Part shown: in pieces, positions 2,558-44,986 of the stretch
How the letters are laid out: the number at the start of each line of letters is the position of its first letter
Position numbering within the stretch: the stretch's first letter is position 1
Assembly (NCBI GenBank): GCA_947628895.1
Contig: CANRBS010000003.1
Span: 1,325-65,324 of the forward strand
DNA length: 64,000 nucleotides
Direction of reading: 5' to 3'
DNA from: an uncultured Bacilli bacterium
GTDB taxonomy: Bacteria; Bacillota_I; Bacilli_A; RF39; UBA660
Made by a program: the position numbers and the translations under genes
Notes under the pieces: generated by a model
Databases searched by the model: none
What the model saw: only the letters and a program-made list of their open reading frames with translations
What the model was told of the DNA's origin: nothing

Positions 2558-2568
2558 TCTTTTTCCTC

Positions 2569-16202: not shown

Positions 16203-17080
16203 TATTCATTACCTCCTGCTGGTTCTTCATTATTGTTAGTATCATTATTTACATCAGTATTTGTATTATTATTTCCACCAACAATATTAACACCACCATT
16301 TGTTACTCTATCTTGACTTTCTACATCAATAGATCTATCTAAAATATATCTTTGAATTCTAGAACTAACTACTCTAGTTTCTTTAGGATTATTTGAATAT
16401 TCAGCATTTCTTGGTACTGGGAATATAGTTCCATCTAAATATGATGCTTTTCTTAATAATAAATGCATATCTTCTGGAACACTAAACATTAAATAAGAAG
16501 GAGTTTTATTTTCTTCAGTTGATTCAAAAACATTATTTCCTTCTGAATCAGTTACAGATAGAACTTTTATACTTTCTATAAATTTTCCTAGCATAACTTT
16601 TCCAGTATCTAAAGTTGTAACATAATATAAATCTATATAATTTCCAGGAAAGATTGAATTACCATAAGTAGTATCTAAATTTACTTGAAGTGCAACAACA
16701 GTATTACCATCTGGTATATCTTCATATAAACTTGAAGGTAAATCTTCCCATTCAACAACCATATCTTTATAAAATAAACCTCCACTTGGTATTACTGCTT
16801 TATTAGATACATATTTTCCTATAATTTGAGAAGTACTTGTTAATAAATTGCTATTTTTAACTCCTCCTGGTACTTTCATTGTAGAAACCATATCTGATGT
16901 TATTAAAGTTCTCGGAGCTATTTCAACAGTTGCATAAGGAACACTAATAGGTTCAGTTTTCTTTTCTATTCTATAATAATATGCCCAATATAAAATACCT
17001 AGTGAAGCCAATATTGCTAAAATTGTCACTGTATTTTTATTTTTTAAAAATCTTTTAATTCCAATCATTATGCTATTCAT
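16202..17080 (-). CDS. cpaB: CpaB/RcpC-like Flp pilus assembly protein, paralog 1 (N/G/T-rich C-terminal tail)
   Basis: 292 aa with the same layout: ...VPYATVEIAPRTLITSDMVSTMKV...VIPSGGLF...VALQVNLDTTYGNSIFPGNYIDLYY.... Clearly paralogous to the next gene. 1-nt stop/start overlap. Confidence 0.7.
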   Translation of the reverse strand: MNSIMIGIKRFLKNKNTVTILAILASLGILYWAYYYRIEKKTEPISVPYATVEIAPRTLITSDMVSTMKVPGGVKNSNLLTSTSQIIGKYVSNKAVIPSGGLFYKDMVVEWEDLPSSLYEDIPDGNTVVALQVNLDTTYGNSIFPGNYIDLYYVTTLDTGKVMLGKFIESIKVLSVTDSEGNNVFESTEENKTPSYLMFSVPEDMHLLLRKASYLDGTIFPVPRNAEYSNNPKETRVVSSRIQRYILDRSIDVESQDRVTNGGVNIVGGNNNTNTDVNNDTNNNEEPAGGNE

Positions 17081-17123
17081 TCTTTTTTCCTCCTATTATC
17101 ATGATAGTAATCTATTCTAGTTA

Positions 17124-17153
17124 ATTATAACACAAAATATTTACTTAATTCAA
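17124..17153 (-). promoter_or_regulatory. Sigma-A-type promoter for the cpaB-tadA-tadBC unit
   Basis: Minus strand reads TTGAAT (17153-17148), an 18-nt spacer, then TGtTATAAT (-10 at 17129-17124). Confidence 0.45.
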
Positions 17154-17161
17154 TATGTTTC

Positions 17162-17195
17162 AAAATAAAAATGTTTAGAATTTTAATTTCTAAAC
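17162..17195 (-). terminator. Rho-independent terminator after the 140-aa gene
   Basis: GTTTAGAA (17173-17180) pairs with TTCTAAAC (17188-17195). The minus-strand hairpin is followed by ATTTTTATTTT. Confidence 0.55.
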
Positions 17196-17203
17196 ATCAC
17201 TAA

Positions 17204-17626
17204 TTAATTTGTAACATCTCCAGGTGCAGTAGTTTCTAATATTCCACTAATATATGTATTTATATTAACATCAAAGCTATCAGAATCAATTTGTGTTTCA
17301 CCACTATTTGTAACAATTCTTACTGTTGCCTTTGGTGGATACTCATGTATATCATAAAATTCAAGTCTATAGCTTTTTGAATTAGAAACACTTTCTGCAA
17401 ATCTTCTTAAATATACTTCAACAAATTTTTCTTTTGACATTACTAATTCTCCAGTTCTTCCATATGAACCAAAATCTATTGCATCAACCATTGCAGCTTT
17501 CATTATTTCTCTACTTAAATAATAATCCTCTTCATTTATAGTAGTAAATCTTTGAACAAGTAATAAAATTGCAATAATTACTATACCTAAAACTAATATT
17601 AAATATCCCCATACTGATTCTTTCAT
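17204..17626 (-). CDS. N-terminally anchored small protein (possible minor pilin/pseudopilin)
   Basis: 140 aa. MKESVWGYLILVLGIVIIAILLLV hydrophobic N-terminus, then a soluble domain. No named motif. Confidence 0.45.
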   Translation of the reverse strand: MKESVWGYLILVLGIVIIAILLLVQRFTTINEEDYYLSREIMKAAMVDAIDFGSYGRTGELVMSKEKFVEVYLRRFAESVSNSKSYRLEFYDIHEYPPKATVRIVTNSGETQIDSDSFDVNINTYISGILETTAPGDVTN

Positions 17627-17711
17627 ACTAAACCTTCTTTCAATATTACTATGTATTCTTTATAACAATTATATCAAATAAAAGAAATATTTTAAAGTAT
17701 TTTTTTATATA

Positions 17712-18350
17712 TTAAATACCATGTTTAATTTTTCTAAATTTATTACTATAAATAGAAGTAAAAACAATACATGATACTAAAAATAATACAAATTTAATTC
17801 CCCAATTTAATGCAAAAGCTTGCATTTTATCTAATAAAGTTTCTTTTTCTTCAGTTTTTTCTTCTTTTTGTTGTTCTTGAAGTATTATATTATCATAATT
17901 TTGTTTAGCAGTTACTAATATTTCTTCTGTTACTAAGCTTGTTGTAAATTGAGAATTACACATAGTGATTTTATCTTCATATCCTGCACAAGCACCAGTT
18001 CCATAAAATTTATTATAATATAATAGATTTACAAAAATTGTTCTAAGAGATGTATCACAATTGTCATTACCATAAACTTTTATTACCATATTTGTTCCTT
18101 CATTTATTTTATTTATAGTAACTTCATTATTTGAATTACTTTCATATTTTTTATCATCATATTCTACAAATAATCCATCAACAACATTGTAAACTACTAT
18201 ATCATATGTTCTAGTATTTACATTATAATTAGTATCATAAGTTATATTATTTGCAAGTAATGCATATTTATCATGTTTATCATGATCACATTCTGCTGAA
18301 TAAACAACAAATGGAAGTAACATCAATAATACAACAAATATTTTTTTCAT
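17712..18350 (-). CDS. Secreted Cys-containing protein with C-terminal TM + basic tail; third paralog of the 225-aa cassette protein
   Basis: 212 aa. Signal peptide MKKIFVVLLMLLPFVVYSA. Shares ...VYG.D.C...LRT...N(K/R)(F/Y)...C.GYEDK..MC... and an E/K-rich segment with the proteins at 24677-25354 and 28987-29664. Also shares the C-terminal helix + KFRKIKHGI layout. Confidence 0.55.
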   Translation of the reverse strand: MKKIFVVLLMLLPFVVYSAECDHDKHDKYALLANNITYDTNYNVNTRTYDIVVYNVVDGLFVEYDDKKYESNSNNEVTINKINEGTNMVIKVYGNDNCDTSLRTIFVNLLYYNKFYGTGACAGYEDKITMCNSQFTTSLVTEEILVTAKQNYDNIILQEQQKEEKTEEKETLLDKMQAFALNWGIKFVLFLVSCIVFTSIYSNKFRKIKHGI

Positions 18351-18352
18351 TT

Positions 18353-19984
18353 TTACTCTCCTTTCAATAATACAGCATGTACAACTAATCTTTTATTATT
18401 ATTACCAGTACATGTAGATAATGTTAATATTTTATCATCAGCTGTTACTTTAGTATCAAATTTATAATTACTTCTTGATTTTATTAATTTAATAAAATCT
18501 TCTTTTTCTTTTTTAGAATCAAATTTAACTTTTAAATAATCAGTCGTATAATCAACTTTATATACAGAAAATATTTTAAATTTATAATTATTATTCTCTG
18601 TATCTAAAGATATTATTAAATTATCTTTTTCTTTTCTCCATGTAGAATTTAATACTTTTTTAAGTGTTCCAAACATAGTACCATTTAACATACTATGACC
18701 ATATATAATATTATTATCATTTAATGTTTTTGCATCATTTCTATAATCTAAATAAATCCATCCCATACTATTTTTATTCTTATAAAAATCATGTTTTAAA
18801 TAATAATTATTATCATTATGTTGAACTACAGGATAAGAAATATTAGTGTTATTAACAATTAAATATCCAATAGTTTCCTTATTAATTTTTTTAAGTGATT
18901 TAAGTGAATTTTCAAAAGTATATTTTGATTTAATTTCTTCTTTTGGAATTTCTTCTTCCATTAAAACATCTCTATCTTCAAGTTCTAAATCTTCTGTTAC
19001 TACTGGTATATTATTACTTTCATCTTGTGTATTTGAAGATGCATAAGATTCATTAATTAATGTATTATTTAAACTATCTATACTAATTTTTTCTATATAA
19101 TCATATGCTTTTACAATTAATAAACAAACTACACATACATAAATACATAAAACAGAAACAAGTTTTAAATTATTTAATGTTAATTGCTTAAATAAATTAT
19201 TTTTTAAAAATGAATTAGCATATATTATTCTAAACTCACAAGTATAATCTTCCTTACATTTATCACTTAATTCTTTTAACCAATCAAAATTATTTACAAT
19301 AAAGTTACCTTTATCATATCCTTGATGAAGAAAAACAATAACATTTCTAGACTCATCATTTTTTACAAGATTAACTACAGATTCTATTAAATCTTTAGAA
19401 TATACATATATATGTATTGCTTTTAAATTATAATTAATTTTTAAAAACTCTTCTAAATCTTTTATTAATCCAAGATACTCTTTAGTTATTTTAATAACTT
19501 TTTTATAATATAAAGTATCTATTTCAAATAAATCTTGTTGACTTAAAAAATCAAAAGATATTTCATTTTGCATTGTTTTAAATACATTTATTTTTTTATC
19601 TTCAAATTTATTTAATATACTACTTGGCATATAATAACAATATATATTTTTAATATTAGTAGATAAAAATAAATTATAATCACTTATACTTATTGATGAA
19701 TTAAATTCTAATATAACATTTTCTATATTTAAATCATTTATATATGGAATTATATATTTAAATGTCATTAATCTTACAATTTTGATATTATTTATATCAT
19801 TATTTATATTTTTAATAGTCTCTAATATATTTTTATAATTCTTTTTATATTTATTTAATGTATAATAAAGAGAATCTTTATACAAACTATTTTTATTTAT
19901 AAAAACACTTTCATCATCATTAATAGTTCTATAATTAAAGATTAATGTATTATTTAATATAGTTAATACAATATATTCCTTCAT
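18353..19984 (-). CDS. srtB: Class B sortase fused to an unknown ~290-aa N-terminal domain via one TM helix
   Basis: 543 aa. The C-terminal ~190 aa read ...IGYLIVNNTNISYPVVQHNDNNYYLKHDF...IIYGHSMLNGTMFG...ILTLSTCTGNNNKRLVVHAVL (His, TLSTC Cys and Arg of sortase B). TM helix LVSVLCIYVCVVCLLIV. The N-terminal domain has no motif I recognise. Confidence 0.8.
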   Translation of the reverse strand: MKEYIVLTILNNTLIFNYRTINDDESVFINKNSLYKDSLYYTLNKYKKNYKNILETIKNINNDINNIKIVRLMTFKYIIPYINDLNIENVILEFNSSISISDYNLFLSTNIKNIYCYYMPSSILNKFEDKKINVFKTMQNEISFDFLSQQDLFEIDTLYYKKVIKITKEYLGLIKDLEEFLKINYNLKAIHIYVYSKDLIESVVNLVKNDESRNVIVFLHQGYDKGNFIVNNFDWLKELSDKCKEDYTCEFRIIYANSFLKNNLFKQLTLNNLKLVSVLCIYVCVVCLLIVKAYDYIEKISIDSLNNTLINESYASSNTQDESNNIPVVTEDLELEDRDVLMEEEIPKEEIKSKYTFENSLKSLKKINKETIGYLIVNNTNISYPVVQHNDNNYYLKHDFYKNKNSMGWIYLDYRNDAKTLNDNNIIYGHSMLNGTMFGTLKKVLNSTWRKEKDNLIISLDTENNNYKFKIFSVYKVDYTTDYLKVKFDSKKEKEDFIKLIKSRSNYKFDTKVTADDKILTLSTCTGNNNKRLVVHAVLLKGE

Positions 19985-20041
19985 TTTCTCTCCTTATTAT
20001 ATATTAATGATATCACATTTTTAATTAAAAAAAAATATGAA

Positions 20042-20551
20042 TTATTCAATTTCATATTTACTTATCATATTGTCTAATACTTTATAATTAATTAGTTTTA
20101 ACTCACTACTTACAGCTTCAACAGCTTGTCCATTTTTAATATATATTATTAATGGAGCATTAACTATTTCATAACTTACATTTGGAAATTTATTTTGAAG
20201 AATATCAATATATTTATCTTTTACATCATTTACATTCCAATATATTATTTTATCTGTTAAATTTTTCTTTTTTATTTCTTTATATAATCTTTTTTCCATT
20301 TTATAAATACTATTTGAATTAGTATAACTAACATATAAAATAGCTTCATTTGTCTCACTTAAAGCATAATCAATATCACTATCATTTATTTCTTTTATAG
20401 TTTTATCCATAAAAACAGAATTATTTATTTTCTTTGATTTTACATTTAAATAAATACTTCTACAACTTAATGTTAATACAATTACTATAATAGAAACAAC
20501 TAATACAATATAATAATTATTACTATTAATTTTCTTAAATATTTTATTCAT
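20042..20551 (-). CDS. Membrane-anchored protein, possible thioredoxin-like fold without CXXC
   Basis: 169 aa. N-terminal TM. ...AILYVSYTNSNSIYKMEKRLYKEI...IIYWNVNDV...APLIIYIKNGQAVEAVSS follows the thioredoxin beta-alpha-beta layout, with SNSI where CXXC would be. By-eye call only. Confidence 0.35.
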   Translation of the reverse strand: MNKIFKKINSNNYYIVLVVSIIVIVLTLSCRSIYLNVKSKKINNSVFMDKTIKEINDSDIDYALSETNEAILYVSYTNSNSIYKMEKRLYKEIKKKNLTDKIIYWNVNDVKDKYIDILQNKFPNVSYEIVNAPLIIYIKNGQAVEAVSSELKLINYKVLDNMISKYEIE

Positions 20552-20611
20552 AATATATCCTTACCCTTCAATATAATATTATTTTATCACAATTTTAAAT
20601 ATTATTAAACT

Positions 20612-20662
20612 TTAATTAAAAAAGAAAGATTACTTTTATAATTATTTTTATAATCTTTCTTT
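20612..20662 (-). terminator. Rho-independent terminator after the 1335-aa gene
   Basis: AAAGAAAGATTA (20621-20632) pairs with TAATCTTTCTTT (20651-20662). On the minus strand the hairpin is followed by a T-run. Confidence 0.6.
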
Positions 20663-20667
20663 TTTAC

Positions 20668-23600
20668 TTATTTTTTTTCAGCAGTATATTTTGATATACC
20701 ATCAAACTTATTTTTTTGATCATTATTATTTACATATAATGAATTTCCACCTCTTATTTCTTCTAAGAAACTACTCTTACAATTAAAGAATTTATTATCT
20801 TTTTGAGTACATGTTCCGGAAATCTTTGTATCATTAAGATATCCTCCTTGACCTTCAACTTTCCTATTATATGATTTTATTTCTCTAATTGATTGTGGTG
20901 TTAAATCAAAACTGTACTCTAAATATAAATCTGAATTTATTTGTGATGATGATTTTTCTATTTCATTCTTTGCAATTTTTCCATATTCAGTTGCCCAGTT
21001 TGAATTTATCCTATCTCCATTTGGAAATAAATCTGATAATTTTACATTTCTATATTTTGTTATAGGATCTGTTATAGAATCTGAATTTCCTGATTGTGAT
21101 TCTTGTGGTAATACAGATGGTCTAGTTACATCTATATGACATGTAAGTTCTGTAAAATCTGTTGATGTTAAATATTTACTAAATGAATCTAATGATCTTC
21201 TTCTGTAATATGTCGTCATATTATTTATTGTTTGTGTTATATCACATCTTGCTACATTAGAATCTATTACTTTACATTTTCCACTATTATATGCATCTTT
21301 TGATGTTGGATATGAATATTTATCTAATGCAACTACATCTAAACTTCCTTCATCTGTTGATTTCTTTACTTCTCCTGTTAATGCTTCCATTTTAAATTCA
21401 CTATCATTATAGAAATCTATTTGTATTGATGTATAAAACATTGCATAATCATTAATTGGTATTTTTGTTATATATAAGTCATTTAATCTCTCTGTTAAAC
21501 CAGTAAGTGTCTTCTTTACTTCAATTGCATTTTTTACTGTAGCTGTAGTACTTTCATCTTTAAACTTATCATATGCATAATTATCATCTTGACTAGCTGA
21601 TACATCATATTCTAAACAATTATCTCCACTACAATAACTTATATCTGATAGATTACTTCTTATCTCTTTTTCTACTTTTATATCATCACTATTTGTTCCA
21701 ATAAATCTATTTTTATTATTTATGTATTGGGCTCCTCCTTCATATGTTATTGTATTTGTTATATCATTGTTAAGTCCATAATGATTTTCACTACTATATA
21801 AATTTTTCAAATATTTATTTAAATTTCCTGTTTTATTATCTTGTGGCTGTCTTATAATATTTTCTTTTATTACCACTTGTCCATTTTTCTCTTGTTCTGT
21901 ATTTTTTACAGCCTCTTCTGTATATAAATTACAGTTATATAAATCATATAATATTTGATTTATATTTTCATCTCTTGAATTTTCTTTTTGTGATTTTATA
22001 AATAATACTGTTAATAAATCTTGTATATTATTTATTGACTTTTCACCACTTGGAAAAGCATCTTCTAAGTCTTTGTCTGTTATTCCATATAATTTTTTCC
22101 AATCTATAGATTCTGGGAAATTCTTATTATAATATATTTCTGATACACATCTTCTTTTTTCTTCTATTATACTTGATATTTTATTATCTTTATTTTCAAG
22201 CACTCCTCCTGGTTTTATATCATATGTAAATGATCTTCCTGATGAAACTGTTAATTTATCTGCTATATAATAATTTACTTCATCTGCACAATATACTCTA
22301 CATAAATTTGTATTTACTTTAAAGTATTCACTATAATCATAATATGATTTATTTGTATCTGAATACATATTTACTATACATTTTAATGATGGATCTCTTA
22401 CATATCCTGTATACACTCCACCATCATTATCTTGACATTTTGGTGCTGAAGTTTTTATTGAATAATCTGTACAATTTCCTGTACAATTTAATGATACACT
22501 ATATTCTTCTGTTGGATAATAGTAACTATCATTTTTCTCCTCTTCTCCACTTACTTTATTATTTTCTGATGTTGTAAATGCAAACATTATCTGATTTCCA
22601 GTTGGATTTGAACATGATACATATTTTTTTACACTAGTACTTTGAGTTGGTCTTTTATAATTTACTGAAACTTGATATTCTTTATATTTATTTTTATTTT
22701 CTGATGTACATACTGCAAAATATTCTGTATCTATTATTATTTGTCCTTTACTAGCATCATATATTTTATCATTATCATTTACATCTATCTTTTCACATTT
22801 GTCTGTTACATCATTGTAAATACAAAAATTATCAACTTTTACAGTACAATATTGTAAAATATATGCTCTTTGTGTATCTGTTAAATCTTGGTATGTTCTC
22901 TTGTCTAATGGTAATTCTGCATCTTTTTTTACATCTTTACAATTATATTCTGTTTTTGTGGTATTTGTTACTGTTCTATCAAATGTTAATACTATATTAG
23001 TTTCTCCTTTAACAAATTCACCTTTATCATTTTGTTCTTCACTTGTTTCTACATCTACTTTATCTGGTCTAGTATTTACTTCATTTCCATATAAATATTC
23101 TAGATGTTCTTGCATATATCTATTTCCTAATACAGTGTTATAAAATAATGCTAATGCTTGTCTTAATGTTGTTGTACTTCCACACACCATATTTGTATAA
23201 TTACATGTTACTTCACTAAAATAATCATTTATATAATTTTGTGACACATCTAAATAGTTATCTGGTAAATTCTTTGCAGTTAAACTTTTTAAATAATTTT
23301 CAAATATATGGTTATATCCATTTTTATATACATTAGTAGAATCAAAGAATCCTGTATCTGCACATGATGAACCATTCCATTTTGCTCTAGAAACTCCAAT
23401 TTTATCATTTCCAAAACCAGCTTGTCCAGAGTGTGCCCCCCATATTCTCATAGCAAGTTCTATTGCTTTATCACTTATATTAGTGTTATTTTTTTTCTTA
23501 TGATAATCTGCTTCTATCATTATATTTGCATATCCACAGTCTACTGTACTATAACTTGTTTGACAATTTGTTACATCAAAATCATTATCAACTTTATAAT

Positions 23601-24675
23601 TATTTCCACCATCTAAATCAAATCCTTGATTTGGATTTACACAATATGCTGGAACATTACCTACTTGAAATGATGGAGTACATGCTTGAAATGTTTGTAA
23701 TTGCCTATTGCATTGATAAACTGGACACATTAATCTGTATCTTATTGACCGATTTCCAGTAGCAAAACCTATTGCATTTGGTTCTATCTTTGCTGCTGCA
23801 CTTTCACACAATCCCCAAAAATCTTCGTTTGTTTTTTCACCTTCTGTTGCTATTACTACTTCAAATGGATCAATAGTTTTAAGACAATTATTTAGAAGTA
23901 CATTTGAACCTAAGTGTAGAGTATAATCATCATTTTTGCATTTATAACACCTTTGATTGCTACTATTATATGTATAGCCAGTTGGACATTTATAACATTT
24001 ATCAGTATTTAACAACATTTCGCCATTAGGGCAAGAATAATTAGTTGCACTATGATAAGTACCTGAACAATATCCATTATAACCACCTGTACAAGAACCT
24101 TTTCTACCATTTTTACCTACATTCCAAGTACATCCATTCCTAGTACACTGAGTAATATTTGAATAATTACAACTTTTTGGATCATGCCAAGTACATGTAG
24201 ATTTGTTGTTGCATGTACTTTTAGAAAGACCACTACAATTTGACCAAATTTTATTTTCTGTAGCCTTTCTCATATAAGTTAAATTTGAAGATAGCATTTC
24301 GCCTTTAGCAACAACTACACAAAGGCCAAATGCTTCAACTTTTCTTTCATCACTTGAGCATCTTTGATAATAAGTTGTATATGTTCCTTTATTATCTGGT
24401 CTCCAATTAGTGGCTTGTAAAAGATCACTAAATGACTCTGCAACTTTATCATAATTTGGACCTTCATATACATTAGCAAAAGCTGGAGAACCATCTGCTG
24501 CTTTTGCTCTTGAAAATCCATTACAAACCTCTGTTTTAATATTAAATCCAGCAGGAGATGCTTGACTAGTTTCATTTATTTTTACATTGCAGTCATTAAT
24601 TCCTGCCTTGCTTATAGGAATAAATGAAAAAACAAGAGAAATTGTAAATAATAATTTTAAAAATTTCTTTTTCAT
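20668..24675 (-). CDS. Giant cysteine-rich secreted protein, unknown family (paralog B1)
   Basis: 1335 aa. Signal peptide MKKKFLKLLFTISLVFSFIPISKA, no C-terminal anchor. Many Cys, e.g. ...YSCPNGEMLLNTDKCYKCPTGYTYNSSNQRCYKCKNDDY.... Conserved blocks are shared with 25437-28985. The start lies 1 nt after the stop of the upstream 225-aa gene. Confidence 0.8.
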   Translation of the reverse strand: MKKKFLKLLFTISLVFSFIPISKAGINDCNVKINETSQASPAGFNIKTEVCNGFSRAKAADGSPAFANVYEGPNYDKVAESFSDLLQATNWRPDNKGTYTTYYQRCSSDERKVEAFGLCVVVAKGEMLSSNLTYMRKATENKIWSNCSGLSKSTCNNKSTCTWHDPKSCNYSNITQCTRNGCTWNVGKNGRKGSCTGGYNGYCSGTYHSATNYSCPNGEMLLNTDKCYKCPTGYTYNSSNQRCYKCKNDDYTLHLGSNVLLNNCLKTIDPFEVVIATEGEKTNEDFWGLCESAAAKIEPNAIGFATGNRSIRYRLMCPVYQCNRQLQTFQACTPSFQVGNVPAYCVNPNQGFDLDGGNNYKVDNDFDVTNCQTSYSTVDCGYANIMIEADYHKKKNNTNISDKAIELAMRIWGAHSGQAGFGNDKIGVSRAKWNGSSCADTGFFDSTNVYKNGYNHIFENYLKSLTAKNLPDNYLDVSQNYINDYFSEVTCNYTNMVCGSTTTLRQALALFYNTVLGNRYMQEHLEYLYGNEVNTRPDKVDVETSEEQNDKGEFVKGETNIVLTFDRTVTNTTKTEYNCKDVKKDAELPLDKRTYQDLTDTQRAYILQYCTVKVDNFCIYNDVTDKCEKIDVNDNDKIYDASKGQIIIDTEYFAVCTSENKNKYKEYQVSVNYKRPTQSTSVKKYVSCSNPTGNQIMFAFTTSENNKVSGEEEKNDSYYYPTEEYSVSLNCTGNCTDYSIKTSAPKCQDNDGGVYTGYVRDPSLKCIVNMYSDTNKSYYDYSEYFKVNTNLCRVYCADEVNYYIADKLTVSSGRSFTYDIKPGGVLENKDNKISSIIEEKRRCVSEIYYNKNFPESIDWKKLYGITDKDLEDAFPSGEKSINNIQDLLTVLFIKSQKENSRDENINQILYDLYNCNLYTEEAVKNTEQEKNGQVVIKENIIRQPQDNKTGNLNKYLKNLYSSENHYGLNNDITNTITYEGGAQYINNKNRFIGTNSDDIKVEKEIRSNLSDISYCSGDNCLEYDVSASQDDNYAYDKFKDESTTATVKNAIEVKKTLTGLTERLNDLYITKIPINDYAMFYTSIQIDFYNDSEFKMEALTGEVKKSTDEGSLDVVALDKYSYPTSKDAYNSGKCKVIDSNVARCDITQTINNMTTYYRRRSLDSFSKYLTSTDFTELTCHIDVTRPSVLPQESQSGNSDSITDPITKYRNVKLSDLFPNGDRINSNWATEYGKIAKNEIEKSSSQINSDLYLEYSFDLTPQSIREIKSYNRKVEGQGGYLNDTKISGTCTQKDNKFFNCKSSFLEEIRGGNSLYVNNNDQKNKFDGISKYTAEKK

Positions 24676-25419
24676 TTTATTTCTCTCTTTCTTTCTTTTT
24701 ATATTTCGTTATCTTTACTATATATATTATTGTTATTACTACTAATGGTACTAATACATATATTCCATATTCCATTGCTATTTTAAATATCTTACTTGCT
24801 GTTAATTCTTTCTCTTTTATTTGTCTATCATATTCTCCTAGTGTCTCTTTAAATTCACTCTCTTCCATATCCTTTGTTGCATTTGTATATGTTTTACATA
24901 ATTCATGATCTGGATATTCTTCACAATATTCTGTCTTTATATATCTATTAAATCTTGGCACTGTATATCTTAATGTCTTTAATAATTCATTTGGACATGC
25001 ACTATCTTCTTTTCCATATACTTCTATTGTATATGTCTCTTCTTCTAAATTTGTATAACATCCTACTCCATATATCCCTACACTATCATAATTCTTTCCT
25101 TCTGCCTTATTTCCACTTCCATCTGTTACTATTATCTTTACATCATCTCTTAATGGTGTTATTGATAAAAAATATGCATATGTTTCTTCTTCACTCATTT
25201 CTCCTGATGGATCTGTTGTCCTTGTATCTTCCTTAAATGTTGCACTTACTCCTACTGCCCATTCATTTAGTTCTTCATCATAACATAATGCTTTTACATT
25301 TATTACTAATAATGATGAAATTATTACTATAATTAATTTTACTAATTTTTTCATTATTTCACCTACTTTTACTCTAAATAAAATTATATCAAATAAAATA
25401 GAAAAAAGAAAGATTTTAT
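24643..25419. repeat. 777-bp direct repeat, copy 1 (5' end of B1, whole A1 gene, A1 upstream region)
   Basis: Aligned by eye to 28953-29729 at a constant offset of 4310 nt with no indels. I found about five mismatches. Confidence 0.9.
24677..25354 (-). CDS. Small secreted protein with C-terminal TM anchor (paralog A1 of the cassette)
   Basis: The track ORF (272 aa) is trimmed to the internal ATG at 25354. That start gives the 225-aa MKKLVKLIIVIISSLLVINVKA... form, which differs at only two residues from 28987-29664, and it has AGGTGA upstream. Five Cys, an E/K-rich segment, then C-terminal helix + KYKKKEREK. Confidence 0.75.
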   Translation of the reverse strand: MKKLVKLIIVIISSLLVINVKALCYDEELNEWAVGVSATFKEDTRTTDPSGEMSEEETYAYFLSITPLRDDVKIIVTDGSGNKAEGKNYDSVGIYGVGCYTNLEEETYTIEVYGKEDSACPNELLKTLRYTVPRFNRYIKTEYCEEYPDHELCKTYTNATKDMEESEFKETLGEYDRQIKEKELTASKIFKIAMEYGIYVLVPLVVITIIYIVKITKYKKKEREK

Positions 25420-25432
25420 AAAAATCTTTCTT
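25395..25432 (-). terminator. Rho-independent terminator after the 1182-aa gene
   Basis: AAGAAAGATTTT (25406-25417) pairs with AAAATCTTTCTT (25421-25432). The minus strand then reads TTTTCTATTTT. The duplication boundary (25419) falls in the loop. Confidence 0.65.
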
Positions 25433-25436
25433 AAAC

Positions 25437-28400
25437 TTATTTATTTTCTTTAGTATATTTTGAAATACCATCAAATTTATTATTAGGACTATCATTATCT
25501 ACATATAATGAATTACCACTACCTATATCTCTTAAGAATGAACTTTCACAATTAAAGTATTTATCATTTGTTAAAGTACAATTTGATAATGTATTATTTA
25601 AGTAACCACCGTTTTTTTCCATTCTAGAATTATAATTTTTAATTTCTCTAATAGATTCTGGTGTTAAATCAAAACTATACTCTAAATAATAATCATCATT
25701 AGTAATTCTACTTGAAGATTCAGCTATTTCATTTTTTGCTATAGTTCCATATTCAGTTGACCAATTTGTATTATCTCTTTCTCCATTTGGGAATAAATTT
25801 GATAAATCTACATCTCTATATATAGTCTTACTATTAGCTGACTGTTCTACTGTAACTTCAGGTATTTTTACATCTACAGAACAATTAAACTTTGTAAGAG
25901 TTGATTTAGTTAAAGCATTACTTAAGTCATCAGTTTTTCTATTTCTGTAAAAAGTACTTGCATTACTAAATGTTTGAGTAACACCACAACTTGCATAGTC
26001 TTTTGATGATTTGCTACATAAATTATATGCATTTTTAGATAATGGATATGAAAAACTATCTAGTTTAGCATAATTTTCATTATATGAACCTATAATCTTA
26101 TTTACTTTTCCACTATATTGTTCTATTTCAAATTCACTTGAATTATAGAAACCAATTTGTGTTGTTATAGTAAACATTGCATAATCATTAACAGGAATTT
26201 GTGTATCTAATATTTTCTTTAAATTCTTAATAGAAGTTGATTTACCATCAATTTCATATCCTGTTGATCCTAATTCAATATTACCAAAAGTATCATAAGT
26301 ATATTTTTCATTTTTACTATCATATGGCAAACATTCATAGCCAAATCCTGTACAATACTTAACATCTGATACTTGTGATTTAACTTCTTTCTTCATATCT
26401 ATATCATTGTTATTATTGCCTACTCTTGAAGATGAATTCATATATTCACTTCCACCTTCATATGAAACAGTATTTAGCCACATATCATCTAAATTTTTAG
26501 AATCTACTAAACCATAATTATTTTTACTATTAAATAAAGTATTTACATAATTATAAGAATCTCCGATAGTATTATCTTTAGGTCTTGTTATATTTCCATT
26601 AGTAAATGTTGATATGTCTTTGACAAAATTACAATTATATAAATCATATACTAATTGATTTAAATTTTCAGATCTATAACCTTCAGATTGAGACTTTTTA
26701 AATAATACAAAGAATAAATCTTTCCAATTTCTAATTTTAGGATCATCTTTAAGATATTTATTAATTTCTTCTTCTGTTATTCCATATATTCCTTCCCAAT
26801 CAGGATTATTTGGAAATTCATTATTATAGTATATTTCAGAGACACAATTTCTCTTTTCTTCAATAATACTACTAAACATTTTACCACTATCATTTAATAG
26901 ATTACCTGGTTTAATATCATATTTAAATTGTAAACCAGAAACAGCATCTATTTTTCCTGCTATATGATAGTTAACTTCATCACTACAATATACTCTACAT
27001 AAATTTGTATTTACTTTAAAGTAATTGCTATAATCATAATAATTTTTATTTGTATTTGAACCCATATTAATAATACAACTTAATGATGGATCTTTTACTG
27101 TACTAGTATAGTACTTATTGTATTCTTTTTGACTTTCACATTTACTTACATTTTCTCTTATTCCATAATTAGTACAAGCACCTGCACAATTAATAGATAT
27201 ATTAAATAGTTTATCATCTTTTTCATCTTTTGTTATACTTTCACCTGGTACTTCTTCAGTAACAGAAACTCCTTGAAATGAAAATAAGTATTGATTTTCT
27301 TCTGGTTCACTACAAGCAATATATTTTTCAACACTAGTCTGTGTTTTAGTTTTTAAATATTCAACTTCTAATTCATAATGAGTATATTTCTTTTGACCAT
27401 TAACTTTACAAGCAGCAAACTTTTCTATATCAAAATCTATTGTTCCTTTATATCCATCAAATTCTTTACTATCTTTATCTACATCAATAGGTATTCTATT
27501 TCCATCATTGTCATATACAAAGAAATTTAAAACTTCAATATTACAATATTTTAATATATTTTCTCTTAAAGGTTCATCTATATTAGGATATTTTCTTTTT
27601 TCTTTTGGTAAATCTTTATCTTTTTCTAAATCATTACAATTAAATGTTTCTTCAGTTTGAATATTAACATTTCTTTCAAATGATAATTCTAATCTTGATT
27701 TTTCTTCTACAGTTTCTACTATAGCATTTGTAGGTTCAGTATTAATATCATATCCTACAATACTATATAGATGTTCTTGCATATATTTATTTCCATTATA
27801 TGTATTAAAGAATAAAGCTATAGCTTCAGCATAATTTAGTAATTTACCACAAACCAAACTGTTTTGTGAATTTTTACATGTAACTTCATCAAAATAACTA
27901 TTAGCTTTGCTAGCATCTACATATTCTTCTTTACTTATTTTATCAAAGAAATATTTCCAAATATAATCATGTGTTATTTTATAAATATTAATTACATCAT
28001 CATCTGCAACAAAAGTTACATACTCACTACAAGAACCGCCTATTACATTAGCTACTCCAACTTTTTTATCATCAAATCCTGCTCCACCAGTATGAACACC
28101 CCATAATCTTAATGCAAGTTGTATTTGTTGCTCATCAATATTATGATATTTTCCCTCAATTAATATATTAGCATAACCACAATCTGCTCTATTAAAGCTT
28201 GATGCAAAACATTTATTAATATCAAAAGTTTTATCTAACATATAATTATTACCATTTGATAAAAATGGAGCAAATCCTTGACTAGGATTAACACAATAAG
28301 CTGGTTTTTCACCAGTTGTAAATGTTGGTGTACAAGTAGATACCTCTTCAGTTTTTGCATCACATCCATATAGTGGACAATTTAATGTATATGTTTCACT

Positions 28401-28985
28401 AGTACACTTAGTACAATTATTATCATTTTCTTGATTACATGTAGCTAAAGCATCAAAAGAAGAATCAATATTAGTAAAATCTTTTGACCAAGTAGTTGTT
28501 GTAGTATCAGATTCCCATTTTCTATTTTTATAACAATATCCATTACTTAGATAAGGATATCCAGTTGGACAACGGTGGTTTACCATAGGAGTGCCATCAC
28601 TATAATGCCAATATGGATCACCTTTTGTTTCAACTGTACAAGTTACATTAGCATCTATATGTGCATCAGGAACATCACATCTTTTGACTTGTACTGTTTC
28701 AATTGTTTTAGCATCAATTGATTCTCTAGTTTTATATACCCATTCATTTTGATAATCAAAAGCGGCTTTAACAGTATCAAAACTTTCTGTATCCCATCCT
28801 TTTGGCACAGCATTTTCCATATCACATATAGTAAGATTAGAACTCCAACTAGTATTCCATGTAGAAGGATCATTTTCAGTTATTCTAATAGTACACTCAT
28901 TTCCTGTTACATCAGCATTAGTAAGTGGAATAAATATAAAAGTAAATAAAACTGTAAATAATAATTTTAAAAATTTCTTCTTCAT
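25437..28985 (-). CDS. Giant cysteine-rich secreted protein, unknown family (paralog B2)
   Basis: 1182 aa. Signal peptide MKKKFLKLLFTVLFTFIFIPLTNA. Blocks shared with B1 include ...CTPTFTTGEKPAYCVNPSQGF..., ...DCGYANILIEGKYH..., ...ALRLWGVHTGGAGF..., ...FKVNTNLCRVYCSDEVNYHIA... and ...LEYSFDLTPESIREIKNYN.... Confidence 0.8.
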   Translation of the reverse strand: MKKKFLKLLFTVLFTFIFIPLTNADVTGNECTIRITENDPSTWNTSWSSNLTICDMENAVPKGWDTESFDTVKAAFDYQNEWVYKTRESIDAKTIETVQVKRCDVPDAHIDANVTCTVETKGDPYWHYSDGTPMVNHRCPTGYPYLSNGYCYKNRKWESDTTTTTWSKDFTNIDSSFDALATCNQENDNNCTKCTSETYTLNCPLYGCDAKTEEVSTCTPTFTTGEKPAYCVNPSQGFAPFLSNGNNYMLDKTFDINKCFASSFNRADCGYANILIEGKYHNIDEQQIQLALRLWGVHTGGAGFDDKKVGVANVIGGSCSEYVTFVADDDVINIYKITHDYIWKYFFDKISKEEYVDASKANSYFDEVTCKNSQNSLVCGKLLNYAEAIALFFNTYNGNKYMQEHLYSIVGYDINTEPTNAIVETVEEKSRLELSFERNVNIQTEETFNCNDLEKDKDLPKEKRKYPNIDEPLRENILKYCNIEVLNFFVYDNDGNRIPIDVDKDSKEFDGYKGTIDFDIEKFAACKVNGQKKYTHYELEVEYLKTKTQTSVEKYIACSEPEENQYLFSFQGVSVTEEVPGESITKDEKDDKLFNISINCAGACTNYGIRENVSKCESQKEYNKYYTSTVKDPSLSCIINMGSNTNKNYYDYSNYFKVNTNLCRVYCSDEVNYHIAGKIDAVSGLQFKYDIKPGNLLNDSGKMFSSIIEEKRNCVSEIYYNNEFPNNPDWEGIYGITEEEINKYLKDDPKIRNWKDLFFVLFKKSQSEGYRSENLNQLVYDLYNCNFVKDISTFTNGNITRPKDNTIGDSYNYVNTLFNSKNNYGLVDSKNLDDMWLNTVSYEGGSEYMNSSSRVGNNNNDIDMKKEVKSQVSDVKYCTGFGYECLPYDSKNEKYTYDTFGNIELGSTGYEIDGKSTSIKNLKKILDTQIPVNDYAMFTITTQIGFYNSSEFEIEQYSGKVNKIIGSYNENYAKLDSFSYPLSKNAYNLCSKSSKDYASCGVTQTFSNASTFYRNRKTDDLSNALTKSTLTKFNCSVDVKIPEVTVEQSANSKTIYRDVDLSNLFPNGERDNTNWSTEYGTIAKNEIAESSSRITNDDYYLEYSFDLTPESIREIKNYNSRMEKNGGYLNNTLSNCTLTNDKYFNCESSFLRDIGSGNSLYVDNDSPNNKFDGISKYTKENK

Positions 28986-29729
28986 TTTATTTCTCTCTTT
29001 CTTTCTTTTTATACTTTGTTATCTTTACTATATATATTATTGTTATTACTACTAATGGTACTAATACATATATTCCATATTCCACTGCTATTTTAAATAT
29101 CTTATTTGCTGTTAATTCTTTCTCTTTTATTTGTCTATCATATTCTCCTAGTGTCTCTTTAAATTCACTCTCTTCCATATCCTTTGTTGCATTTGTATAT
29201 GTTTTACATAATTCATGATCTGGATATTCTTCACAATATTCTGTCTTTATATATCTATTAAATCTTGGCACTGTATATCTTAATGTCTTTAATAATTCAT
29301 TTGGACATGCACTATCTTCTTTTCCATATACTTCTATTGTATATGTCTCTTCTTCTAAATTTGTATAACATCCTACTCCATATATCCCTACACTATCATA
29401 ATTCTTTCCTTCTGCCTTATTTCCACTTCCATCTGTTACTATTATCTTTACATCATCTCTTAATGGTGTTATTGATAAAAAATATGCATATGTTTCTTCT
29501 TCACTCATTTCTCCTGATGGATCTGTTGTCCTTGTATCTTCCTTAAATGTTGCACTTACTCCTACTGCCCATTCATTTAGTTCTTCATCATAACATAATG
29601 CTTTTACATTTATTACTAATAATGATGAAATTATTACTATAATTAATTTTACTAATTTTTTCATTATTTCACCTACTTTTACTCTAAATAAAATTATATC
29701 AAATAAAATAGAAAAAAGAAAGATTTTAT
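28953..29729. repeat. 777-bp direct repeat, copy 2 (5' end of B2, whole A2 gene, A2 upstream region)
   Basis: See copy 1. Identity ends at 29729/25419 on one side and decays below 28953/24643 on the other. Confidence 0.9.
28987..29664 (-). CDS. Small secreted protein with C-terminal TM anchor (paralog A2)
   Basis: 225 aa. Differs from A1 at two residues (N/S and V/M). Confidence 0.75.
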   Translation of the reverse strand: MKKLVKLIIVIISSLLVINVKALCYDEELNEWAVGVSATFKEDTRTTDPSGEMSEEETYAYFLSITPLRDDVKIIVTDGSGNKAEGKNYDSVGIYGVGCYTNLEEETYTIEVYGKEDSACPNELLKTLRYTVPRFNRYIKTEYCEEYPDHELCKTYTNATKDMEESEFKETLGEYDRQIKEKELTANKIFKIAVEYGIYVLVPLVVITIIYIVKITKYKKKEREK

Positions 29730-29755
29730 TGTATAATTAATTAGAGGTATTTTTT

Positions 29756-30325
29756 ATGTATGAAGTATTTAATAAAGAATTAAGTTATATTAAAGATGAA
29801 AGAATTAAAAGAAGTTTAATCACAATGTTAAAACTACTTCCTGATTATTTTTATGAAGTACCAGCAAGTTCTACTGGAAAGTATCATCCTAGTTTTGCAA
29901 CTGGTAATGGAGGACTTGTAAGACATACTAAAGTTGCTGTTAGAATTGCTAAAGAACTTCTTGATAATCCATCTCTAAATAATTTTACTCAAAATGAAAA
30001 AGATTTAATTTTATTTGCTTTAACACTTCACGATGGTATGAAAAGTGGAAAAGAAAAAAGTGAATATCATTTATTTGAACATCCACTTATTGTAAGTAAC
30101 TTTATAAAAGAAAATAAAGATAAATTAGAACTTACAGATGATGAAATTAATTTAGTATGTAGATGTATAGATACACATATGGGACCTTGGACTAAAAATT
30201 ATAAAGGCGAAGAAATTCTTGAAGCACCAAAAGATAAATATCAAAGATTTGTTCATATGTGTGATTATTTATCAAGTAAAAAATTTTTAGATGTTAAATT
30301 TGATAATAATGAATTAATAGGTTAA
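29756..30325 (+). CDS. HD-domain phosphohydrolase
   Basis: 189 aa. ...VRHTKVAVRIAKEL...ALTLHDGMKSG...CIDTHMGPW... fits the H..HD..D metal-binding pattern of the HD superfamily. Confidence 0.7.
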   Translation: MYEVFNKELSYIKDERIKRSLITMLKLLPDYFYEVPASSTGKYHPSFATGNGGLVRHTKVAVRIAKELLDNPSLNNFTQNEKDLILFALTLHDGMKSGKEKSEYHLFEHPLIVSNFIKENKDKLELTDDEINLVCRCIDTHMGPWTKNYKGEEILEAPKDKYQRFVHMCDYLSSKKFLDVKFDNNELIG

Positions 30326-30358
30326 AAAAAGAATATTTTAGTCATAATATTCTTTTTT
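30325..30358. terminator. Bidirectional rho-independent terminator between convergent genes
   Basis: AAAAAAGAATATT (30325-30337) pairs with AATATTCTTTTTT (30346-30358). The arms themselves are A/T-runs, so it can act on either strand. Confidence 0.6.
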
Positions 30359-30515
30359 ATTTAAACTAGTTTGTAATTTTTTAAATTCATTATTATCTTT
30401 AAATAATTCTTTAGCTTTTTCACTATCACAAAAACATTTTATATATTCTTTATATACTTCTTTGTCTTTTTTATTTTTATTAATTATATTTTTTATTTTC
30501 TCTATCATAACTCAC

Positions 30516-33110
30516 CTATTCATTTTGTACTTCTATTATTGTTAAATTATTTTCTTTAGCAATATTTAAAAGTTCATCATTTAATAAACCAACTATTATT
30601 ATAAATGCTGGACTCATAGTTGATAATTCAATATTATCTTTATTAACTTTAATAGTGGTCTTATTATTAATTGTTGTAAATCTAATAGAACCTGTCTTTA
30701 TTAATTTATCATATCCATAACTATTTTTATCAAGATTTACAATACTTGAACACAGATAATGTATACCATCATTATTAGTACTAGTAAGTACTTTAAACTC
30801 TTGACCAACTATAGTATATACTTTTACACCATTTCTTTCATTTTTTAAAACAATATCTGGTCTATATTTATACAATTCTTCTATTTCATTTAAAGATACA
30901 ATCATATTATTTATAAGTTCAACTTTATATTCTTTTATTTTATTAAATAGCTCATTAACACTAAATATGTTTCTTTTAACTTTATTAGTAATTATATTTT
31001 CTAAAAAAGATAATATTAAATCAAAATCATTGCTTGAAAATAATAATTTAGTCATACAAAACAAATTTACTTCATCATCTGTAAATATATTTTTATCATC
31101 AATTTTTAAAGTTTCAAGTGCTTCACTATCAAAAACATCACATATATTTTTTATAGTATCTACATCTAACCAACCACAATTTCCTTTTTCATCATATGAT
31201 TTATTAAATAAATACTTACATAATAAATTTTTATAAACATTTTCATCTTTTGTTACAGATAATTCTTCAACAATTTTTTTAATATAAAAAGTATCATAAG
31301 AAGATAGTTCTTCTTTTTTAGTTACATTATATTGATTTAATCCAGAAGATAATAGTAAAATTAAATTTTCAATTTCTAAATCTGTTAATTCTTTATCTTT
31401 TATATCTAATAATATATCTTTATAATATGTAAAATTTTCTATTGTTTTATATAATGATTCTTTATTTTTACCATATATTTCTATCATTATATAATAATAT
31501 TCTTTAAACAAATCATACATTTTATCAGATTTAATTATCAATAATAAATTTGATATATTAACAAAATTATATTTTGAATAATCTTGTAATAAATCATCAT
31601 CTATAAAAGATAATCTATTATCAAATAGTTCAAGTGAATTAATATTATATAAGTCTTTATTATTTTTAATTTTTCTTTTATATGCATTTGATAATATTTC
31701 ATTTAATATAGTTATTCTTTGAGCCGTTATTTTATTATTAGTTTTATCTTTATATAATATTGAAGAACCTATATATACAGATATTTTATCAAAAGCATTT
31801 GCTGTAATTATTTTTTTATTAAATAATATTTTAAATAATTCAAATATACAATTATAGTCTTTTTCATAATCATATTCATCCATATTTTCTATATATGTAT
31901 TATAAATTTTGTTTATAAGTTTGTAATATTTAGAATATATATCATTATTATCATAATATGATTTAAATAAATTTAAACATCTTGAATTACTATCAATTAT
32001 TATTTTTTCTTTTACGGCTTTTTCCTCATCTTTATTGTATAAAGGAACAACATATGGAAGAACATAGTTTACATCAATATTAATAAGTGATTTTATTTGA
32101 TCTAAATTAAGTTCTTGTAATATTTTAATAATTCTTTTTGTATATTGATAACTTATATCATTACTTTTAGAATCAAATCTATAAAGTTTTCCTTTTGCAT
32201 TAAATAAATTTTTATTAACCAATATATTTACTATTTCTTTAATTGATGATGATTCTATATTTTCTAAAATTCCATATACTATTTCTTGTGTTTTATCTTC
32301 TTTATTTTTTAGTATTGATAAGTTTACATATTTAATTAATTCTGTATCGTATTTTAATAATTTAACTAATATATCTTCTTCTATATAATTTATCATATAT
32401 GGATAAGTTTTAATATATTCTTTTTGTATATCAATATTTGCAGTATTAAAATTAGTAAAATCTTCTTTTATTTTATTAATTTGACTTTCTAAATATTTAT
32501 CTCTTGCAGAACCATTTAAATATGTAATGAATTCTTCTTTATCTGTATATTTATTTTGAACATTTTGATTAGCATATTTAATAAATATTGGATTTACTTC
32601 TAATATGTATTCCCATTGCTTATCAGTTAATTTATCTTTTATTTTTTCTATTAATTTTTCAGTTTCTTTTACATCTGAATTAGAAAGAACGGTTATTACT
32701 TTTTTTAAATCATCCATAAATAGTAATGTTATATCATCTGGTTGACTAAAATATAATTTTAAATAATTATTGTATTCTTCTTCATCGAATCCTACTACAA
32801 GTGCATTCATAAAAAATTTATTACCATGCATCCATAAACTTACTAGTTCTCTTTTTGCTTCTTTACTTCCTAAATTAAACATAGTAAGATTACTATTTAT
32901 TCTAGATACTTGAAAATCTAAAGGCAATATTCTAATTAAAGAGGGATGATTAAAAAACAAATAACTAAGTACTATTTCATTATTTGCAAATTCTTTATTA
33001 TCAAGATAAGCTATTTCTATTTCTTTTTCACTTTTATTTTTAAGTTTTGCTATGAAATCATTAGCTTTTCTTTGAACTTGTCTATTTTTCATATCTTTTA
33101 ATAGTGACAT
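30516..33110 (-). CDS. Large cytoplasmic protein, unknown function
   Basis: 864-aa uninterrupted ORF in very AT-rich DNA. Predicted mostly helical and K/N/I/E-rich. No signal peptide, TM or catalytic motif that I recognise. Confidence 0.7.
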   Translation of the reverse strand: MSLLKDMKNRQVQRKANDFIAKLKNKSEKEIEIAYLDNKEFANNEIVLSYLFFNHPSLIRILPLDFQVSRINSNLTMFNLGSKEAKRELVSLWMHGNKFFMNALVVGFDEEEYNNYLKLYFSQPDDITLLFMDDLKKVITVLSNSDVKETEKLIEKIKDKLTDKQWEYILEVNPIFIKYANQNVQNKYTDKEEFITYLNGSARDKYLESQINKIKEDFTNFNTANIDIQKEYIKTYPYMINYIEEDILVKLLKYDTELIKYVNLSILKNKEDKTQEIVYGILENIESSSIKEIVNILVNKNLFNAKGKLYRFDSKSNDISYQYTKRIIKILQELNLDQIKSLINIDVNYVLPYVVPLYNKDEEKAVKEKIIIDSNSRCLNLFKSYYDNNDIYSKYYKLINKIYNTYIENMDEYDYEKDYNCIFELFKILFNKKIITANAFDKISVYIGSSILYKDKTNNKITAQRITILNEILSNAYKRKIKNNKDLYNINSLELFDNRLSFIDDDLLQDYSKYNFVNISNLLLIIKSDKMYDLFKEYYYIMIEIYGKNKESLYKTIENFTYYKDILLDIKDKELTDLEIENLILLLSSGLNQYNVTKKEELSSYDTFYIKKIVEELSVTKDENVYKNLLCKYLFNKSYDEKGNCGWLDVDTIKNICDVFDSEALETLKIDDKNIFTDDEVNLFCMTKLLFSSNDFDLILSFLENIITNKVKRNIFSVNELFNKIKEYKVELINNMIVSLNEIEELYKYRPDIVLKNERNGVKVYTIVGQEFKVLTSTNNDGIHYLCSSIVNLDKNSYGYDKLIKTGSIRFTTINNKTTIKVNKDNIELSTMSPAFIIIVGLLNDELLNIAKENNLTIIEVQNE

Positions 33111-44371: not shown

Positions 44372-44986
<615 letters not shown>

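Follow-up and report, generated by a model that had tools for sequence, protein, structure and literature searches.

We analyzed a stretch of 64,000 nucleotides (nt) from an uncultured Bacilli bacterium of the RF39 lineage (NCBI GenBank assembly GCA_947628895.1, contig CANRBS010000003.1, positions 1,325 to 65,324), referred to below as the window, which has a GC content of about 22-28%. It carries a locus in which a gene for a small membrane protein, designated here A, is twice followed by a gene for a giant Cys-rich exported protein, designated B (Table 1). A sequence-only reading of the window had described these genes as a family of two-partner cassettes. The pairing of A with B is borne out by our analysis. 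The cassette does not stand alone, however: the pairs belong to a conserved Tad/Flp-like locus, and most relatives of this locus possess the arrangement A-B-DUF5411. Judged from its gene content, the locus appears to encode a divergent, uncharacterized Tad/Flp-type (type IVc-like) filament system of uncultured, low-GC gut Bacilli.

All genes of the A/B region lie on the minus strand and follow each other in the transcriptional order A2, B2, A1, B1, Trx-like gene, sortase gene and A3. Both A-to-B junctions read TAA-A-ATG, in agreement with the 1-nt spacer claimed before. B2 and A1 are separated by a spacer of 82 nt that holds a 12-bp hairpin followed by a T-run; the region thus reads as two apparent A-B bicistrons, with B2 and A1 uncoupled from each other. 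Transcription may terminate at this hairpin; a consensus terminator scanner made no call there because its stem contains too few G-C pairs. A promoter and terminator scan of positions 17000-30500 returned 123 sites where 132 were expected and is uninformative in DNA so rich in AT.

Table 1. Features of the A/B region, of the filament genes and of the upstream flank, in positions of the window (aa, amino acids; ORF, open reading frame; TM, transmembrane; AF2, AlphaFold2).
Feature	Position	Strand	Remarks
A2	28987-29664	-	225 aa; ORF, TM scan, AF2 model
B2	25437-28985	-	1182 aa, 37 Cys; start codon 1 nt past A2 stop
A1	24677-25354	-	225 aa; open frame runs on upstream to 25495
B1	20668-24675	-	1335 aa, 49 Cys, B2 paralogue; start 1 nt past A1 stop
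Trx-like gene (DUF6568/PedC-like, membrane-anchored)	20042-20551	-	Pfam PF20207, E=1e-21
Class B sortase fusion	18353-19984	-	TIGR03064, 173.5 bits, over cutoff
A3	17712-18350	-	212 aa; remote A paralogue, always directly after sortase gene
Terminator-like hairpin after B2	25406-25432	-	12-bp AT-rich stem, loop TAT, T-run; read by eye
Repeat copy 1	24617-25419	-	65 nt upstream of A1, whole A1, first ~58 nt of B1
Repeat copy 2	28927-29729	-	Upstream region, A2, start of B2
DUF5411 pilin-like protein	17204-17626	-	Pfam PF17424, E=2e-47; MKESxWG, then hydrophobic helix
Two CpaB/RcpC-like proteins (292, 252 aa)	15444-17080	-	PF16976, TIGR03177
CpaF/TadA-type secretion ATPase	13901-15421	-	PF00437, E=1.6e-28
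Two polytopic proteins in TadB/TadC position (299, 267 aa)	12186-13888	-	Assigned by position alone
Flp-like 90-aa pilin candidate	11842-12114	-	N-terminus kept in relatives
TadE-like 183-aa protein	11209-11760	-	N-terminus kept in relatives
HD-domain protein	29756-30325	+	Upstream flank
864-aa protein (X864)	30516-33110	-	No family match; upstream flank

Our comparison covered 17 related loci from genomes and another 5 from metagenomes. The genomes, taken from GTDB, are those of uncultured Bacilli, 'Tenericutes' and Erysipelotrichaceae, represented by metagenome-assembled genomes from rabbit gut and rumen, and of Clostridium sp. CAG:1000; no cultured isolate was present among the related records that we found. 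The common gene order runs from X864, HD, Trx-like, SrtB fusion, A3 and (A-B[-DUF5411])n to CpaB, CpaB, CpaF/TadA, two platform-like genes, Flp-like and TadE-like. In most relatives the cassette consists of A-B-DUF5411, joined by overlapping stops and starts and often present twice, and is located after A3; the most distant B relatives (P0049 and P0236) retain A3-A-B-DUF5411-CpaB, again with overlapping stops and starts. In the lineage of the window, two A-B pairs precede the Trx-like gene, and just one DUF5411 gene is left. From this comparison the ancestral cassette is reconstructed as three genes, coding for A, B and the pilin-like DUF5411 protein.

The A-B pair is syntenic in every related locus, as the sequence-only reading would have it, and its coupling is kept: the gap between A and B measures -4 to +4 nt in 21 of the 22 junctions in relatives. 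Each A gene is followed by a B gene, and A lies directly upstream of 20 of the approximately 24 B genes whose upstream context can be read. The last codons of A form a purine-rich, Shine-Dalgarno (SD)-like run for B, both in the window (24677-24700 and 28987-29010) and in loci L003-L023. Since these codons overlap the ribosome-binding site of B, a dual constraint on protein and RNA accounts, at least in part, for the conservation of the KKEERxK tail of A.

The proteins of the locus evolve at very different rates, as seen when the same genome pairs are compared across proteins. Identity to the window proteins amounts to 77-95% for TadA, 82-95% for the TadB-like protein and 50-82% for the sortase, and drops to 31-75% for A, 31-67% for A3 and 23-48% for B. 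B thus evolves faster than any other gene of the locus, and one to three divergent copies of it are present per genome. In one relative (L016), B genes coding for proteins of 1420 and 1601 residues directly follow the Trx-like gene, and a DUF5411 gene lies ahead of the sortase gene.

A direct repeat of about 800 bp, whose copies are about 99% identical and share 624 consecutive identical bases at 24796-25419, covers both A genes. Its upstream part contains TGATATAAT, a -10-like box (25383-25391), and an AGGTGA SD sequence; since the repeat extends over the first ~58 nt of B, both B proteins begin with MKKKFLKLLFT. A1 and A2 are identical in 223 of their 225 residues (99%), a degree of identity found in this window only. 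In two-cassette genomes, the two A proteins are 32-63% and the two B proteins 35-53% identical, and the A-A identity roughly tracks that of B, which is compatible with cognate A-B pairs. Because A copies elsewhere share no more than 32-63% identity, the A1/A2 repeat looks like the product of a recent gene conversion, or of a duplication of a block made up of promoter, A and signal peptide, or of cassette shuffling.

B1 and B2 form one family. Residues 228-1335 of B1 align with residues 137-1182 of B2 at 43% identity (E=0), and the N-terminal parts are barely alignable (30% identity over 131 aa). Each protein has a single N-terminal hydrophobic segment in a TM scan and none at the C-terminus, as expected from the shared start and missing anchor that the sequence-only reading had pointed out. 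Its estimate of about 25 Cys in the first ~400 residues of B1 proved exact (25 within residues 1-400), and every conserved block that it quoted is present. Other extracellular parts of the system are Cys-rich as well, with a Cys content of 4.4% in the Flp-like protein and 2.2% in A, compared with 0-0.8% in cytoplasmic parts. A word-seeded search yielded 50 B clusters at 90% identity. An exhaustive profile search of 1.84 billion representatives yielded 469 clusters at E<=1e-3, of which 143 reach E<=1e-30; the family size of ~470 counts clusters at 50% identity. Full-length members among the 150 best matches listed are 1000-1700 aa long. Some distant members carry N-terminal Flg_new (Listeria-Bacteroides repeat), MucBP or Big domains.

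In our searches B matched no named family. Neither B1 nor B2 matches a Pfam or NCBIfam model, and no match to PDB sequences was obtained, whether single B proteins or profiles built from close or from distant members were used as the query. An AF2 model of B2, built with 40 homologues, is reasonably confident and reached a mean predicted local distance difference test score (pLDDT) of 79.5 and a predicted template modelling score (pTM) of 0.67; Foldseek found nothing significant for it, the best values being E=0.13 in PDB and E=0.054 in BFVD. The B, A and A3 families are unannotated, and B is without a detectable known fold. Among the 40 aligned homologues, 35 of the 37 Cys of B2 are kept in at least 78% of the sequences, and most of them in 95-100%. 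Residues that are invariant across close and distant B subfamilies are mostly Cys, Gly, Arg and aromatics, a pattern that points to a disulfide-stabilized structural scaffold and not to an active site; the Cys residues are presumably paired in disulfide bonds. The sequence-only reading had suggested that a conserved Cys/His block could be catalytic. This idea, like that of a lysozyme-like Glu, had to be abandoned: the distant subfamily retains neither E277, its ANILIE block being replaced (e.g., by CGLAQILYQT), nor the His of 'WG.H', and no His is invariant.

Conservation is unevenly distributed along B. The more variable N-terminus noted before and the better conservation of the C-terminal third were both recovered: residues 120-180 in the N-terminal part and residues 420-630 are the most variable regions, and the better-conserved parts of the 40 aligned sequences include 631-690, 931-960 and the C-terminal ~130 residues. 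Distant members match best over the C-terminal 300-400 residues. The lowest confidence of the B2 model coincides with the conserved C-terminal ~140 residues (pLDDT 39-74 in blocks of 10 residues), which fits a region that would fold against a partner.

The A proteins resemble each other in layout. A1, A2 and A3 are the sole proteins of the window to combine a signal peptide with a C-terminal TM helix and a basic tail, the latter being KYKKKEREK in A and NKFRKIKHGI in A3 (...RKxKHGI in the A3 family). A1 and A2 each contain five Cys. The N-terminal hydrophobic segment of all three proteins ends in VKA/VNA-x-C; we considered whether A is a lipoprotein and rejected this, as the Cys stands at +2 after the VNA/VKA cleavage site and no lipobox was seen by eye. 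The AF2 model of A2 (pLDDT 83.5) comprises the signal peptide, a short conserved helix (xCNDEELNEWA), the strands of a beta-sandwich (37-132) and a helix (165-224) that includes the membrane span. Foldseek returned generic immunoglobulin (Ig)-like, FN3 and filamin matches only (E>=0.018). According to this model, A has the topology of a type I membrane protein, in which a helical stalk bears an Ig-like ectodomain. Its family comprises 66 homologous clusters, none of them named. The similarity of A and A3 is weak in pairwise comparison (E=0.02); when profiles are compared, it becomes clear (hhalign 97.8%, E=8e-13, 178 columns). A3, whose A-like layout had been noticed from the sequence, is by this measure a true remote paralogue of A.

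The assignment of the remaining genes to a Tad/Flp-type system builds on several lines of evidence. The best PDB match of the ATPase is CpaF (8rkd, E=2e-19). The two CpaB-like proteins score 28.3 and 27.6 bits with PF16976 (cutoff 28.8) and E=4e-9 and 8e-9 with TIGR03177, under its cutoff; such sub-cutoff CpaB-type matches recur consistently across relatives. The two platform-like proteins have four to five hydrophobic segments each and are 77-95% identical in relatives. The 90-aa Flp-like protein begins with MKEATG-ELNMTVV..., that is, with a short leader and a hydrophobic helix, and has no canonical EY; its N-terminus and that of the TadE-like protein (MKEATGELNMTVV... and MREAIGGSWLFGIV...) are conserved in relatives. 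Like DUF5411, both proteins start with M(K/R)E(A/S)xxG and then a stretch of about 20 hydrophobic residues, a feature kept in all relatives that fits short-leader pilins of the Tad/archaeal type. DUF5411 homologues elsewhere carry a dockerin (L003; P0321, P0337 and P0358). The ATPase of the window has a tail of ~140 aa of low complexity (N/E/S/Q), which is absent from most relatives (381-465 aa; a few have 527-549 aa).

At the end of the locus (9733-10101, minus strand) lies a gene for a 122-aa protein with two TM segments and four Cys, which gives weak matches (E~1e-3 to 1e-2) to T4SS_pilin, a Gram-positive family, and to pilin-like families of Mycoplasma integrative and conjugative elements. 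These matches, together with VirB11-like matches, had raised the idea of a conjugative type IV secretion system or mobile element. We discarded it since VirB4, VirD4 and a relaxase are missing among the locus genes scanned, and since the chromosomal position next to the uvrD-like gene is kept across species. The locus adjoins this helicase gene in the relatives whose contigs reach that far, and this stable position suggests a core function. The HD-domain and X864 genes, which flank the locus upstream wherever contigs cover this region and adjoin the UvrD/PcrA helicase gene (33551-35635), may be part of the system.

The presence of a class B sortase fusion within a type IV-filament locus is unusual. 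With E=5e-39 to SrtB of B. anthracis (2oqw) and with the conserved motifs YGHS, TLSTC and RLVVHA, its sortase domain is, by sequence, a genuine class B sortase. This domain (residues ~350-543) is fused to an N-terminal cytoplasmic domain of ~265 aa and one TM helix, an architecture kept in all relatives with the gene on the contig. The N-terminal domain has no family match, and residues 140-290 hold more invariant columns than the sortase domain itself. By topology, A1, A2 and A3 are the sole candidates in the window for a substrate of this enzyme, yet they are motif-less. A and A3 have the signal peptide and the C-terminal hydrophobic segment with basic tail of a sorting signal and lack the pentapeptide: across 35 A and 14 A3 sequences, the 20 residues ahead of the TM helix contain no conserved pentapeptide or column and are the least conserved part of both alignments. 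The earlier proposal that the tail of A resembles a sorting signal consequently did not hold up, also in view of the continuous helix 165-224 in the AF2 model. The Trx-like protein, which we considered as a dedicated disulfide oxidase, cannot catalyze the disulfides of B, because none of 15 family members has a CxxC motif. This redox-dead protein adjoins many Cys-rich exported proteins.

Taken together, we tentatively favor, with somewhat less than even confidence, a reading in which B is a disulfide-stabilized, fast-diverging distal or adhesive component of the Tad-like filament that is docked by its C-terminal third and has A as its membrane partner. B would be exported by Sec and would fold outside the cell into a large, multi-domain body in which many of the conserved Cys form disulfides. 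Its conserved C-terminal third would dock on DUF5411, on the ectodomain of A, or on both, and its faster-evolving N-terminal two-thirds would face outward and set what the filament binds. Through translational coupling, A would be made together with B in a fixed proportion, and it would either hold or chaperone B at the membrane while B awaits loading onto the filament, or anchor B there. Exposure of B is suggested by the identities between the same pairs of genomes, which in this comparison amount to 30-48% for B and 45-65% for A against 77-95% for TadA, and by the adhesin-type add-ons of some distant B members. We infer the A-B and B-DUF5411 contacts, the location on the filament and the function in adhesion.

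A number of observations weigh against this proposal. B has no recognizable adhesin fold, and it is not built from repeats, unlike typical Gram-positive stalk adhesins. Four B genes have no A gene upstream (in L003 and L012, and both in L016). The near identity of A1 and A2 (99%), set against the about 43-46% identity of B1 and B2, means that A cannot read the variable part of B. As to the filament itself, the platform-like proteins match nothing in Pfam, NCBIfam or PDB, the Flp-like and TadE-like candidates match no family model, and a prepilin peptidase (A24) is missing from the 64-kb window; the designation Tad-like is drawn from the ATPase, the CpaB-like proteins, the gene order and the N-terminal motifs.

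Other explanations of the same genes have to be weighed. B could be a structural or assembly part of the machine, such as a collar or conduit that spans the wall, or a scaffold at the base or tip, with A and A3 as its membrane receptors. B is ancestral and present in every locus, and its model is compact and multi-domain and not a fibre (pTM 0.67). Single-membrane Tad systems are not known to have a secretin, which makes another component at the level of the wall plausible. However, the genes of the machine are conserved (TadA 77-95%, TadB 82-95%) while B evolves fastest and occurs in one to three copies, and distant B members carry variable N-terminal add-ons of adhesin type; we consider this explanation rather unlikely. 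Quite unlikely, in our judgment, is a sortase-anchored holdfast, in which SrtB would cleave A and A3 at an unconventional C-terminal signal and link them to peptidoglycan, and B would be shown on wall-anchored A. The real SrtB domain with its conserved His, Cys and Arg motifs, the A3 gene that always follows it with an overlapping or adjacent start, and the topology found in the window in A1, A2 and A3 only speak for such an arrangement. In their signal peptide, hydrophobic C-terminal segment, basic tail and location beside SrtB, the A proteins resemble the substrates of class B sortases (IsdC, NPQTN/NPKTG; C. difficile, [SP]PxTG), but these substrates possess a sorting pentapeptide, whereas in the 35 A and 14 A3 sequences no conserved LPXTG, NPxTN, [SP]PxTG or other pentapeptide stands ahead of the TM helix, in a segment that is the most variable part and is predicted to be helical. 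Moreover, the unbroken helix leaves no exposed linker, the ribosome-binding site of B offers another explanation for the conserved tail of A, and in locus L023 the genes A3-A-B follow the Trx-like gene without a sortase gene between them.

B might also be secreted as an effector or toxin that the Tad-like apparatus delivers, a role proposed for the Kil system of Myxococcus, which is contact-dependent; A would then be an immunity, holding or export partner. Its fast evolution and the occurrence of divergent paralogues behind a small conserved membrane protein are reminiscent of toxin-plus-partner cassettes. This is very unlikely, given that neither sequence nor fold reveals a toxin or enzyme domain, that no residue of catalytic type is invariant across the superfamily, that B carries its own Sec signal peptide, and that the partner gene precedes B and codes for a protein with an extracellular Ig-like domain. 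We regard as least credible, to the point of near-dismissal, that the block YC(V/I)NP...CG(Y/L)A...ALRLW represents an adhesion domain of covalent or catalytic type, such as a thioester-type domain. Thioester domains (TEDs) contain a Cys motif of the type [YFL]C-hydrophobic-[DNE], which YCVNP resembles; (A/V)YC(V/I/L)(N/Q)P is present in most members, C231 is invariant, and B shares with the TED adhesins of Gram-positive bacteria the context of a surface protein. One distant member (P0236) weakly matches Pfam TED_2 (E=1e-3 and 19.5 bits, below the cutoff of 27), but it is the only one of 51 members scanned to do so, and at the position expected for the Gln partner of TED adhesins (hydrophobic-Q-xxx-W), the motif (T/L)A(L/M)R(L/M)W carries Ala or Leu. 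Searched against PDB, a sub-profile of the block hit no thioester domain and only a chance kringle-like YCRNPG (E=0.28), and thioester structures are missing from the Foldseek matches. With no Gln partner, no profile match above threshold and no match in fold, we rejected a thioester domain in B; a simpler account of the Cys is that it belongs to the about 18 disulfide partners.

Among known systems, the locus comes closest to the Tad/Flp systems (Caulobacter Cpa, Aggregatibacter Tad, Bifidobacterium breve Tad), with which it shares the CpaF/TadA ATPase, the CpaB/RcpC-like proteins, two polytopic proteins in TadB/TadC position, a very short pilin candidate, a TadE-like protein and short leaders. 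It differs from them in that its platform and pilin candidates match no family model, in that its window holds no prepilin peptidase, and in the addition of the SrtB fusion, the redox-dead Trx-like protein, three A-family proteins and the giant B. We know of no described Tad locus with any of these additions, and our literature searches found nothing of the kind. In organization only, B and its neighbors recall the PilY1/PilC tip adhesins and the minor pilins of type IVa systems, in which a fast-evolving, Sec-exported protein of ~1100-1300 aa is coupled to a minor-pilin-like gene. The adjacency or overlap of B and DUF5411 in relatives likewise places a large Sec-exported protein with a minor-pilin-like gene, as an analogy and not a homology. 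In contrast to PilY1/PilC, to which it has no similarity in sequence or fold, B is rich in Cys and is paired with A as a dedicated partner anchored in the membrane, and neither a PilY1 beta-propeller nor a vWA domain was found by Pfam or among the Foldseek matches. Our literature search on DUF5411 and related pili found only the independent prediction, from gene neighborhoods and with no functional data, of an uncharacterized secretion or pilus operon in Roseburia, Ruminococcus and Eubacterium (Clostridia), which codes for CpaF, a PilC/GspF-like protein, DUF5411 and an internalin-B-like protein (Miller et al., 2022; PMC9523054). This operon has in common with our locus CpaF, DUF5411 and a part resembling a surface protein, and its Flg_new repeat type also occurs on some distant B members; in contrast to our locus, neither the A and B families nor a sortase were reported for it.

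Further genes for surface proteins are found elsewhere in the window. A 3031-aa protein (51089-60184, minus strand) with a signal peptide, a match to the GLUG motif only and no C-terminal anchor is a further giant surface or secreted protein. Two exported cadherin-like proteins are encoded at 974-4755 (minus strand); the one of 728 aa also has SH3b and dockerin domains, and in the one of 527 aa, a long K/E-rich tail comes after a TM helix. Together with the dockerin-bearing DUF5411 homologues of other genomes, these proteins hint at a surface assembly of the cohesin-dockerin type in these Bacilli. At 37623-39242 (minus strand) and 44372-46063 (plus strand), a large serine recombinase (resolvase, recombinase and zinc ribbon) is found near a collagen-repeat protein and a GT2-TPR protein, and this region may be mobile or phase-variable.

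A bolder proposal, which we consider unlikely at present, is that A, B, DUF5411 and the sortase fusion constitute an unrecognized filament-tip or surface-display complex that links the type IV-filament and sortase pathways. In such a complex, the Tad-like motor would present a giant, disulfide-knotted protein of novel fold via a dedicated pilin adaptor, and a class B sortase with its own cytoplasmic domain would be the coupling partner of the C-tail-anchored family of Ig-like 'loaders' (A and A3). If true, this would join two pathways that are otherwise considered separate. Bacilli with such reduced genomes are abundant in the metagenomes of rabbit, rumen and other guts, where their attachment to the host, to food particles or to partner cells is at issue. 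The assignment to a Tad-like filament gives the large, unannotated B family a concrete hypothesis and a target for structural work.

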